Shown here: piece after piece, positions 15,001-18,000 of the stretch
Numbering within the stretch: position 1 is the first letter of the stretch
Layout of the letters: each line of letters begins with the position of its first letter
Assembly (NCBI RefSeq): GCF_003334405.1
Contig: NZ_QOWM01000013.1
Origin: Escherichia coli
Lineage (GTDB): Bacteria > Pseudomonadota > Gammaproteobacteria > Enterobacterales > Enterobacteriaceae
Direction: 5' to 3' (one strand)
DNA: 64,000 nt
Made by a program: the position numbers

Positions 15001-18000
15001 GAGCTGCGCCTGCTGCTGCGCCAATCAGCGCGCCTTTACCGCGATCTTTCTTCGAAGAAGAGAGCGCACCAATACCCGCGCCCACGAGAGAGCCCAGACC
15101 TGCGCCGATAGCAGATTTACCTGCTTCGCGTTCGCCGGTGTAAGGGTTAGTTGTGCAGCCAGATACCGCCAGAGCGCCACTCACTACGGCGGCAATAAGA
15201 TAAACACGTTTCTTCATTGTTAATCCTTAATAACCTTTTTATTCTTTGCCACGGGTTCCGTGGCGGGAGATTATGCCGCGTGAACATGAAGATTATTCCT
15301 GGGAATACTCGGAAATTTGTAAGTAATATTTAACTGCTCAATACATCTAACCTTTCAGGAGTCTTCGGTTTGGCCAACTCATCCTCACGATATTCCGTTC
15401 TGACTGCCGCCCATTGGGGGCCCATGCTGGTTGAAACCGACGGCGAAACCGTGTTTAGCTCGCGTGGCGCGTTAGCCACAGGAATGGAAAACTCCTTGCA
15501 GAGCGCGGTTCGCGACCAGGTTCACAGCAATACGCGGGTACGATTTCCAATGGTGCGAAAAGGCTTTCTTGCGTCACCGGAAAACCCGCAAGGCATTCGT
15601 GGGCAGGATGAATTTGTTCGCGTGAGTTGGGATGAGGCGCTGGATCTTATTCACCAACAACATAAACGCATTCGTGAGGCTTATGGTCCGGCATCGATTT
15701 TTGCTGGTTCCTACGGCTGGCGTTCAAACGGCGTGCTGCATAAGGCCTCGACATTATTACAACGCTATATGGCGCTGGCAGGCGGTTATACCGGGCATCT
15801 GGGGGATTATTCGACCGGCGCGGCACAGGCGATCATGCCGTATGTCGTGGGTGGTAGTGAAGTTTATCAACAGCAGACCAGTTGGCCGCTGGTGCTGGAA
15901 CATAGCGATGTCGTGGTGCTGTGGAGTGCTAACCCACTCAATACGCTGAAAATTGCGTGGAATGCATCCGATGAGCAGGGGCTTTCTTACTTTTCTGCAC
16001 TGCGTGACAGCGGGAAAAAGCTGATCTGCATTGATCCAATGCGATCGGAAACCGTCGATTTCTTTGGCGATAAAATGGAGTGGGTGGCACCGCACATGGG
16101 CACCGATGTTGCGCTGATGCTGGGGATCGCCCATACGCTGGTGGAAAATGGTTGGCACGACGAAGCGTTTCTGGCGCGTTGCACCACAGGTTATGCCGTC
16201 TTCGCCTCTTATTTGCTGGGCGAGAGTGACGGAATAGCGAAAACCGCCGAATGGGCAGCAGAGATTTGTGGTGTTGGCGCAGCGAAAATCCGCGAGCTGG
16301 CGGCTATTTTCCACCAAAATACCACCATGCTGATGGCAGGCTGGGGAATGCAGCGCCAACAGTTTGGTGAGCAAAAACACTGGATGATCGTCACGCTGGC
16401 AGCAATGTTGGGGCAAATCGGCACACCCGGCGGCGGTTTTGGTCTTTCTTACCATTTTGCCAATGGTGGTAACCCCACGCGGCGTTCTGCGGTGCTCTCT
16501 TCCATGCAGGGCAGCTTGCCGGGTGGCTGCGATGCGGTGGATAAAATCCCTGTTGCCCGCATTGTTGAAGCACTGGAAAACCCTGGTGGCGCATATCAAC
16601 ACAACGGTATGAACCGACATTTCCCGGATATTCGTTTTATCTGGTGGGCGGGCGGTGCCAACTTTACTCATCATCAGGATACCAATCGCCTGATCCGTGC
16701 CTGGCAAAAACCGGAGCTGGTGGTGATCTCTGAATGCTTCTGGACGGCGGCGGCAAAACACGCGGATATCGTTCTGCCTGCGACTACCTCTTTTGAGCGT
16801 AATGATCTCACCATGACCGGTGATTACAGTAATCAGCATCTGGTGCCGATGAAGCAAGTGGTGCCGCCACGCTATGAAGCGCGTAATGATTTTGATGTTT
16901 TTGCCGAGTTAAGTGAACGCTGGGAGAAGGGCGGTTATGCACGTTTTACGGAAGGAAAAAGTGAGCTGCAATGGCTGGAAACGTTTTATAACGTTGCCCG
17001 ACAGCGCGGGGCAAGCCAGCAGGTTGAATTGCCGCCATTTGCTGAGTTCTGGCAAGCCAACCAGTTAATTGAGATGCCGGAAAACCCGGACAGCGAGCGG
17101 TTTATTCGCTTCGCTGATTTTTGCCGCGATCCGCTGGCGCATCCGTTAAAAACCGCCAGCGGCAAGATTGAAATCTTCTCACAGCGTATTGCCGATTACG
17201 GTTACCCGGATTGCCCTGGGCATCCAATGTGGCTGGAGCCGGACGAATGGCAGGGCAATGCCGAACCAGAACAGTTGCAGGTACTTTCTGCCCATCCGGC
17301 GCACCGCCTGCACAGCCAGCTGAATTACAGTTCTCTGCGCGAATTGTACGCGGTGGCAAATCGTGAGCCTGTCACCATTCATCCTGACGATGCCCAGGAG
17401 CGCGGCATACAAGATGGCGATACTGTTCGGTTGTGGAACGCACGCGGGCAAATTCTTGCCGGAGCGGTCATTAGCGAGGGAATTAAACCTGGCGTGATTT
17501 GCATTCACGAAGGGGCATGGCCGGATCTGGATTTAACCGCTGACGGTATTTGTAAAAACGGCGCAGTGAACGTGCTGACCAAAGATCTCCCCAGCTCGCG
17601 GCTGGGGAATGGCTGTGCGGGTAATACGGCGCTGGCATGGCTGGAAAAATACAACGGTCCGGAACTGACACTTACAGCGTTTGAACCACCGGCCAGCTCA
17701 TAATCCATGTGGGTAGTTGGGTTTCATCCTGCCATGCGCAATCGACAATGTGAAAACCCTGTGCCTGGTAAAAATTTATCGCCGGTTGATTTTTTTGATA
17801 AACCTCCAGCATCAGGTGGGGATGGCGCTGCTGCACATACTGCATCAGCGCCTTACCAATACCGCGCCTGACGGCCTTCGGTGCGACAAACATCGCTGCC
17901 AGAAATCGGCCTTCCATAATGCTGACAAAACCGAGAAGCTTACCGTCTTCTTCCCAGACCCAGTTTTGCGCGTTGGCAAGATAGGCATCCCGCACCAGCG

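Follow-up and report, generated by a model that had tools for sequence, protein, structure and literature searches.

In Escherichia coli, the convergent genes bisC and yiaC overlap by 32 bp at their 3' ends, and the bisC frame opens with TTG. We examined this junction in a 64,000-nucleotide (nt) stretch of contig NZ_QOWM01000013.1 (assembly GCF_003334405.1), referred to here as the window, and compared it across Enterobacteriaceae. With a probability of about 80%, we read the locus as an ordinary, already annotated arrangement in which the tag-yiaC pair and bisC converge with no intergenic spacer, the overlap representing tolerated compaction and no dedicated switch. The overlap and the TTG start restate existing reference annotation and are already known; the value added here lies in the family-wide conservation of the overlap, the asymmetric constraint on its two partners, and the conservation of the weak start. 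The features at the centre of this account are as follows:

15370–17703, plus strand: bisC coding sequence, 777 amino acids (aa), TTG start, TAA stop at 17701–17703 (open reading frame listing, RefSeq).
17672–18112, minus strand: yiaC coding sequence, GNAT lysine N-acetyltransferase, 146 aa, ATG start, TAA stop read 17674 to 17672 (open reading frame listing, RefSeq).
17672–17703, both strands: tail-to-tail dual-coding overlap of 32 bp, comprising the last 10 sense codons and the stop of each gene (open reading frames, raw sequence).
18109–18672, minus strand: tag, 3-methyladenine DNA glycosylase I, upstream partner in the tag-yiaC pair (open reading frame listing, RefSeq).

The sequence-only reading had placed the overlap at 17672–17703, with the yiaC stop at 17672–17674 and the bisC stop within the last 10 yiaC codons. 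These positions are exact to the base, the open reading frame listing, the raw sequence and RefSeq being in agreement. The region is E. coli chromosome: a 3.1-kb stretch matches 5,423 of 5,426 complete E. coli genomes, and bisC and yiaC of the window are 100% identical to those of K-12 MG1655. In the RefSeq annotation of MG1655, yiaC occupies 3713652..3714092 and bisC 3714061..3716394, which reproduces both the 32-bp overlap and the 777-aa product (NP_418007.3). A chance overlap of open reading frames can be dismissed, bisC and yiaC each being a conserved and characterized gene. RefSeq/PGAP relative coordinates are also identical in five further E. coli, namely the 100%-identical strain 300709 and four strains down to 96.7% identity. 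Compared with the RefSeq/EcoCyc entries b3550 (yiaC) and b3551 (bisC), the window shows no difference in coordinates, overlap, TTG-initiated 777-aa BisC or sequence.

The conservation of the junction was assessed by scanning one genome per species, which returned 80 loci; 70 of these carried bisC followed by a convergent yiaC, giving 71 loci with the window. The 70 loci represent Escherichia, Citrobacter, Salmonella arizonae, Klebsiella, Raoultella, Kluyvera, Enterobacter, Lelliottia, Leclercia, Kosakonia, Phytobacter, Trabulsiella, Pluralibacter, Pseudocitrobacter, Silvania, Huaxiibacter and Shimwellia. The two coding sequences overlap in all 71, by 32 bp (n = 32), 38 bp (n = 32) or 23 bp (n = 7). 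Two of the retrieved loci contain irregular bisC genes: in Leclercia adecarboxylata NCTC13032 (L065, ~2990–3000) a 1-nt insertion near codon 13 breaks the frame, and in Citrobacter amalonaticus AUH_CA_2023_1 (L078) bisC was matched in pieces only, each a possible pseudogene or assembly error.

Within the overlap, the first codon positions of the two genes are opposed and the third position of either gene lies opposite the second position of the other, leaving no site that is silent in both. The strongest constraint is confined to a short core:

17693–17704, both strands: dual-constrained core, bisC Ala-Ser-Ser-stop opposite yiaC Ile-Met-x-Trp (71-locus conservation).

The bisC stop sits within the YiaC Ile-Met codons, and in the YiaC motif PTWIMxW the residues P, T, W, M and W are invariant across the 71 loci. 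The bisC codons -3 (Ala) and -1 (Ser, Ala or Pro) have four-fold degenerate third positions that face the second positions of the YiaC Trp and Met codons; these sites have zero entropy, compared with a mean of ~1.0 bit at bisC third positions farther upstream. Because four-fold bisC sites facing YiaC Met and Trp are invariant, the comparison shows directly that selection acts on the yiaC frame within bisC and that both frames are constrained there. Past the Trp, the YiaC tail is variable in length and accepts radical substitutions, reading QAD in most genera and PVV in E. coli; therefore, the obligatory dual-coding core measures about 11 nt, with only loose constraint on the remainder of the overlap.

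The two partners differ in which of their ends can move. The BisC end is constant in all loci (...LTAF[D/E/N]PPAxx*) and aligns with the last residues of the structures 1eu1 (778 of 780) and 7l5i, so that, judged by these alignments, the BisC C-terminus is the ancestral end of the dimethyl sulfoxide (DMSO) reductase fold, without extension. The YiaC stop, by comparison, shifts among three sites, each of them a TTA on the bisC strand arising from Leu-Thr (cTT Acn) or Phe-Asn (tTT Aac) codons. Loci of the 23-bp class always carry BisC FNPP in place of FDPP (GAC to AAC), and thus a single G-to-A change accounts for both the D-to-N substitution in BisC and the YiaC stop. The last conserved YiaC residues (PTWIMxW) extend 11 nt into bisC, and the loose tail that follows ends wherever the bisC codons first permit a TTA, which yields the three overlap lengths found among genera. 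A search for YiaC homologues returned Enterobacteriaceae proteins only (143–148 aa, at least 52% identity), and the overlap could not be traced beyond the family; within the sensitivity of this search, the arrangement looks both family-wide and family-limited. In some E. coli assemblies, YiaC is 135 aa (P0011, P0012) or 160 aa (P0014, P0015; clusters of 17 and 168 members) long; these variants may be frameshifted or alternatively terminated and would then alter the extent of the overlap.

Both products are recognizable at full length. BisC, the biotin sulfoxide and free Met-S-sulfoxide reductase, is a cytoplasmic molybdoenzyme of the DMSO reductase family. It matches PDB 7l5i (HiMtsZ) over residues 7–774 (E 6.7e-279) and PDB 1eu1 (Rhodobacter DMSO reductase) over residues 10–775 on 8–778 of 780 (E 2.8e-250), a full-length family match that includes the N-terminal HWG region and the C-terminal strand. 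Since residues 7–775 align with 1eu1 8–778 of 780, both BisC termini are ancestral to the family. The protein fits the cytoplasmic form, with no twin-arginine translocation (Tat) signal peptide, no RRxF motif and only 14 residues before HWG. YiaC, named 'peptidyl-lysine N-acetyltransferase YiaC' in RefSeq, aligns to YjaB (PDB 2kcw, E 4.8e-13), and its GNAT domain is represented by Pfam PF00583, PF13673 and PF13508 in precomputed annotations of orthologues.

The bisC start was then considered, for which two elements of the leader are relevant:

15370–15372, plus strand: TTG initiation codon of bisC, the first start codon after the in-frame TAA at 15331–15333.
15357–15361, plus strand: Shine-Dalgarno sequence AGGAG, 8 nt before the TTG (sequence).

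As the sequence-only reading had noted, the longest bisC frame runs from TTG 15370 with no in-frame ATG before it; GTG is likewise missing between the TTG and the upstream TAA. The single start-like codon in that interval, CTG 15334, was rejected as a start codon; it abuts the stop directly and has no Shine-Dalgarno sequence. The next in-frame ATGs lie at codon 19 (15424) and codon 39 (15484), each with G-rich stretches merely 0–3 nt upstream. Among the 69 loci with a placeable N-terminus, about 64 (~93%) start with TTG, about 5 (~7%) with GTG and none with ATG, the GTG starts belonging to Leclercia sp. 29361, L. adecarboxylata, two Silvania species and Shimwellia. The motif (C)AGGAG precedes the TTG or GTG by 5–9 nt in nearly all orthologous loci, replaced by GGGAG or CGGAG in a few. 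The start lies 11–14 codons upstream of LTAAHWG (residues 11–17), which is invariant in the 69 loci. The spacer and codon positions around the start vary freely, and therefore the first base of the start codon is more conserved than typical silent sites. BisC residues 7–38 align with structured N-terminal residues of mature DMSO reductase and MtsZ, so a protein begun at Met19 or Met39 would lack part of the fold. The gene has the marks of UUG initiation, namely a suitably spaced Shine-Dalgarno sequence, an upstream in-frame stop, and LTAAHWG before the first ATG. About 3% of E. coli genes start with UUG, a member of the class that initiates at 10–100% of the AUG level (10.1101/063800). On these sequence grounds, BisC is initiated at TTG 15370, a weak start kept throughout Enterobacteriaceae, and the proposal of non-ATG initiation is supported by the RefSeq start, the AGGAG 8 nt upstream, the TTG or GTG in 69 loci and the N-terminal homology.

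Transcriptional interference or antisense 3' ends had also been predicted from the overlap. A full-length mRNA of either gene has to include the stop codon of that gene, which makes the two transcripts complementary over at least 32 nt; published data document the antisense 3' ends both in an excludon list (PMC12288877) and as a Rho region antisense to bisC (PMC7815308). ExcludonFinder (Nucleic Acids Research 2025) places yiaC-bisC among 165 convergent excludons found in at least 50% of 58 MG1655 transcriptomes (PMC12288877, Table 1). In Adams et al. (2021), a Rho termination region of class 'antisense bisC' is placed at MG1655 3714344 (+), 252 nt beyond the stop of yiaC (PMC7815308 Supp. file 2); upstream/downstream coverage there is 90/23 without and 60/112 with bicyclomycin (BCM), with a Rho score of 7.3 and p 5.5e-14. 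As the sequences are identical, the mapping from MG1655 to window coordinates is exact:

17380–17460, minus strand (the yiaC strand): published bicyclomycin-sensitive Rho region, approximate, centred at ~17420 (PMC7815308 Supp. file 2).

The yiaC-strand RNA past the stop (17671–17392) is C-rich and G-poor, with a C/G ratio of 1.26–1.67 in 80-nt windows, and is in this respect like a Rho utilization (rut) site. No Rho region is reported on the bisC strand in the interval MG1655 3713200–3714399 (PMC7815308), and TERMITe has no entries for bisC, yiaC, b3550 or b3551. Low expression is a plausible reason for the missing 3' ends and the missing bisC-strand Rho region.

A terminator scan revealed a structured element on the yiaC strand, between the yiaC stop and the Rho region:

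17587–17609, minus strand: GC-rich 9-bp hairpin in bisC codons -38 to -31 (LPSSRLGN), 63–85 nt after the yiaC stop (terminator scan).

Read on the yiaC strand (17609..17587), the hairpin is UUCCCCAGC-CGCGA-GCUGGGGAG, followed by AUCUUUGGUC. The stem has 9 pairs, 6 of them GC, and folds as a GC-rich stem-loop at -18.9 kcal/mol (z -3.08); the tail AUCUUUGGUC contains 5 U in 10 nt, with a longest run of 3. The hairpin is kept in most genera, with some compensatory synonymous pairs (Leu CTC/Gly GGG to TTG/GGC; Ser AGC/Arg CGG to AGT/CGA). In the alignment, 89.9% of cells are paired, compared with 86.0 ± 0.5% in shuffles (0 of 500 reach the observed value) and 26–61% for slid partners. This conserved hairpin inside bisC is new here. 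It may act as a leaky intrinsic terminator or as a stem that protects the 3' end of the tag-yiaC mRNA, an assignment from sequence features that we regard as tentative and somewhat doubtful.

No convincing intrinsic terminator was found downstream on the bisC strand. The U7 tract at 17790–17796 (plus strand), which is the antisense of the YiaC codons QKNQ, was considered as a bisC terminator and rejected: the stem in E. coli reaches only -4.6 kcal/mol (z 0.31) and is not conserved. Folding of 141–181 nt around the overlap gave no unusual structure on either strand (z -0.8 and -1.1). An Rfam scan of 14400–19600 at E ≤ 1 identified no known RNA family, the only match being a spurious snoRNA hit at 14469–14518.

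Taken together, these observations suggest the following course of events. Both genes are translated to their annotated stops, the 32 bp encoding both C-terminal tails. Since the genes leave no space between them for a terminator, the tag-yiaC transcript would run antisense into the bisC 3' end and pass the conserved hairpin 63–85 nt downstream, which perhaps serves as a leaky terminator or 3'-end stabilizer, and would be stopped by Rho ~250 nt downstream, as published (PMC7815308). The bisC transcripts would likewise extend antisense into yiaC-tag, ended probably by Rho or by head-on polymerase encounters; collisions of RNA polymerase positioned by stem-loops between convergent genes have been described in general (10.1101/2022.10.23.513370). 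The tag-yiaC and bisC units appear to be weakly expressed. To our knowledge, no phenotype is associated with these overlapping units and, given also their weak expression, the overlap is therefore read as compaction that dual coding constraint would have frozen.

Several points weigh against this account. That every lineage has kept the overlap could reflect function, which is inseparable here from mere constraint. For the start codon, neither an N-terminal peptide nor a start-site profiling datum bearing directly on BisC was found, and the TRAINSPOTTER and INRI-seq supplements contain no bisC entry; a literature search on BisC N-terminal sequencing or a UUG start also found nothing specific. 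The hairpin has a weak U-tract, its covariation score of 0.070 is matched by one slid control (0.068), and Klebsiella, Raoultella, Salmonella arizonae and Shimwellia lack it. A mapped 3' end at its U-tract (coordinates 37141xx) was not found in the Term-seq table (PMC7815308 Supp. file 1), and the curated table holds no discrete Term-seq 3' end anywhere in MG1655 3713200–3714399 (PMC7815308). The Rho coordinate itself derives from 800-nt windows with low read counts (60–112 per 800 nt).

Alternative explanations were weighed at the level of coding and of regulation. That the overlap is an artefact, with one gene ending earlier or yiaC being no real gene, is hardly credible: many long (>60 bp) convergent overlaps proved to be 3'-extension misannotations (Pallejà et al., PMC2478687), but this one measures just 32 bp, neither bisC nor yiaC has an earlier in-frame stop, and the length classes of both tails are conserved in 71 loci. 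The invariant four-fold sites point to selection on the YiaC frame inside bisC, the BisC end is the C-terminus of the DMSO reductase family, and RefSeq assigns YiaC a peptidyl-lysine N-acetyltransferase function. It is also very unlikely that translation of BisC really begins at one of the internal ATGs, codon 19 (15424) or codon 39 (15484), and that the TTG extension merely reflects a longest-frame annotation convention. Older database entries presumably gave a 739-aa BisC beginning at Met39, and the RefSeq protein now stands at version 3. ATG is, moreover, the commonest start codon, with UUG opening just 3% of E. coli genes (10.1101/063800). Against these points stand the alignment of residues 7–38 with structured DMSO reductase and MtsZ residues, the invariance of LTAAHWG in 69 loci, and an AGGAG 8 nt before the TTG where the internal ATGs have only G-rich stretches 0–3 nt upstream. 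The TTG or GTG and its Shine-Dalgarno sequence, furthermore, co-vary in position across genera, 11–14 codons before HWG.

Regulatory alternatives concern the hairpin and the antisense transcripts. It is possible, though on balance doubtful, that the hairpin at 17587–17609 is a true factor-independent tag-yiaC terminator within bisC, with Rho acting just as a read-through backstop. Its strong local fold, its position 63 nt past the yiaC stop with AUCUUUGGU next, and the retention of the stem in most genera, compensatory synonymous pairs included, favour such a role; the poor U-tract, the missing Term-seq 3' end at MG1655 3714177–3714190 (PMC7815308), covariation not clearly above slid controls, and the loss from the Klebsiella/Raoultella clade argue against it, and the stem largely follows from conserved Pro-Ser and Leu-Gly codons. 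If correct, it would add one more example to a known class, terminators located in a convergent coding sequence. A functional excludon, in which the overlapping 3' ends form a conserved regulatory device and transcription of tag-yiaC into bisC, or of bisC into yiaC, lowers expression of the partner by polymerase collision or RNase III duplex cleavage, would inversely couple DNA-repair and acetyltransferase expression to sulfoxide-reductase expression. We consider this unlikely. The pair is in the published list of convergent excludons (PMC12288877), the overlap occurs in 71 of 71 family loci, the tag-yiaC transcript extends ~250 nt antisense into bisC (PMC7815308), and a conserved stem-loop is present here, a stem-loop being reported to position RNA polymerase collisions between convergent genes (10.1101/2022.10.23.513370). 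The excludon call, however, amounts to coverage overlap alone, which is unavoidable with overlapping coding sequences; no reciprocal expression data came to light; the Rho data have low read counts; and several genera lose the hairpin yet keep the overlap. The conservation has a simpler explanation in dual coding constraint, acting on YiaC Met/Trp and on the C-terminus of BisC. Quite improbable, in our view, is a conserved low-level expression module combining the overlap, the embedded hairpin and the weak TTG, in which tag-yiaC transcription would tune BisC by antisense, through stem-loop-positioned collision or duplex cleavage, and the TTG would be selected to keep BisC low; this would imply selection for low BisC given its costly molybdenum-bis(molybdopterin guanine dinucleotide) (Mo-bisMGD) cofactor. 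A dedicated regulatory role for the overlap has a low likelihood, and nothing requires such a role.

In classical excludons (e.g. Listeria), a long antisense untranslated region demonstrably represses the neighbour, whereas the transcript overlap of yiaC-bisC is forced by the coding overlap. With the convergent excludons of PMC12288877, the locus shares a convergent pair with overlapping transcripts, yiaC-bisC itself being listed. It likewise resembles other cases of Rho termination of untranslated or antisense RNA (PMC7815308) in its BCM-sensitive coverage drop after the stop, its C>G RNA and its position antisense to a convergent gene; compared with the other Rho regions of that study it is not unusual, and many table entries share the 'antisense' class. 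The E. coli reference genome contains 663 overlapping adjacent pairs, 75 of them convergent (Huvet & Stumpf 2014, PMC4161906), and convergent pairs make up 7% of the overlaps between well-characterized genes of 338 genomes (PMC2478687). Within 50 kb around the locus, two of seven convergent pairs overlap (yiaC/bisC and ysaE/hokA). The convergent coding overlap of ysaE/hokA measures 24 bp (window ~8290–8490, mapped from strain 300709; L083 38472–38672); the published excludon list includes it, as well as yhjV/dppF, which has a 29-bp gap. Like other conserved prokaryotic tail-to-tail overlaps (Rogozin et al. 2002, cited in PMC2478687; PMC4161906), the bisC/yiaC overlap is short, set by stop position and kept among related species; set against them, it is kept family-wide (71 of 71 loci) and falls into three length classes with one partner's stop moving. 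In kind, it is ordinary.

The wider locus has the order yiaD, bisC, yiaC, tag, yhjY, in which yiaD and bisC diverge, bisC converges on yiaC-tag, and yhjY diverges from tag. The tag stop overlaps the yiaC ATG in an ATGA at 18109–18112, the usual translational-coupling arrangement inside operons. Upstream of bisC, a consensus scan detected one further element:

15246–15274, plus strand: promoter-like TTGCCA-17-GATTAT with the inverted repeat GCCAC..GTGGC between the hexamers, a candidate bisC promoter/operator (consensus scan).

The block TTCTTTGCCAC-N6/7-GTGGCGGTTGATTATGACG within this promoter-like element is conserved across genera, as is, strongly, the whole yiaD-bisC intergenic region at 15218–15369 (the equivalents at L003–L082). 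Further conserved blocks of the bisC leader are GAAAATTCC and GAAATTTGTAA, and CACCTGCA lies 15–25 nt before the Shine-Dalgarno sequence in many non-Escherichia genera. This conservation suggests a candidate operator or leader element for bisC.

Citrobacter spp., Trabulsiella guamensis and Entomohabitans teleogrylli also carry a 66%-identical BisC-like paralogue (L066–L077), which from its sequence is probably a periplasmic sulfoxide reductase of the MtsZ/TorZ type. This Tat-dependent paralogue shares with BisC the fold and the C-terminal LT(A/V)FD motif. Unlike bisC, it has a Tat signal (MKLTRRDFIK...), an ATG start after AGGAG, a C-terminus 4–5 residues longer, and its own canonical hairpin-plus-U terminator, with no yiaC neighbour. 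By this contrast, the TTG start and the missing terminator are therefore specific, stable properties of the cytoplasmic bisC.

The discovery value of the junction is small, the overlap and the TTG start being annotated, the transcript overlap catalogued and the Rho site published. The comparative result provides a teaching case of dual-coding constraint, in which the BisC end is ancestral and the YiaC stop is mobile over three partner-set sites, together with a weak start codon that has been held for a whole bacterial family.

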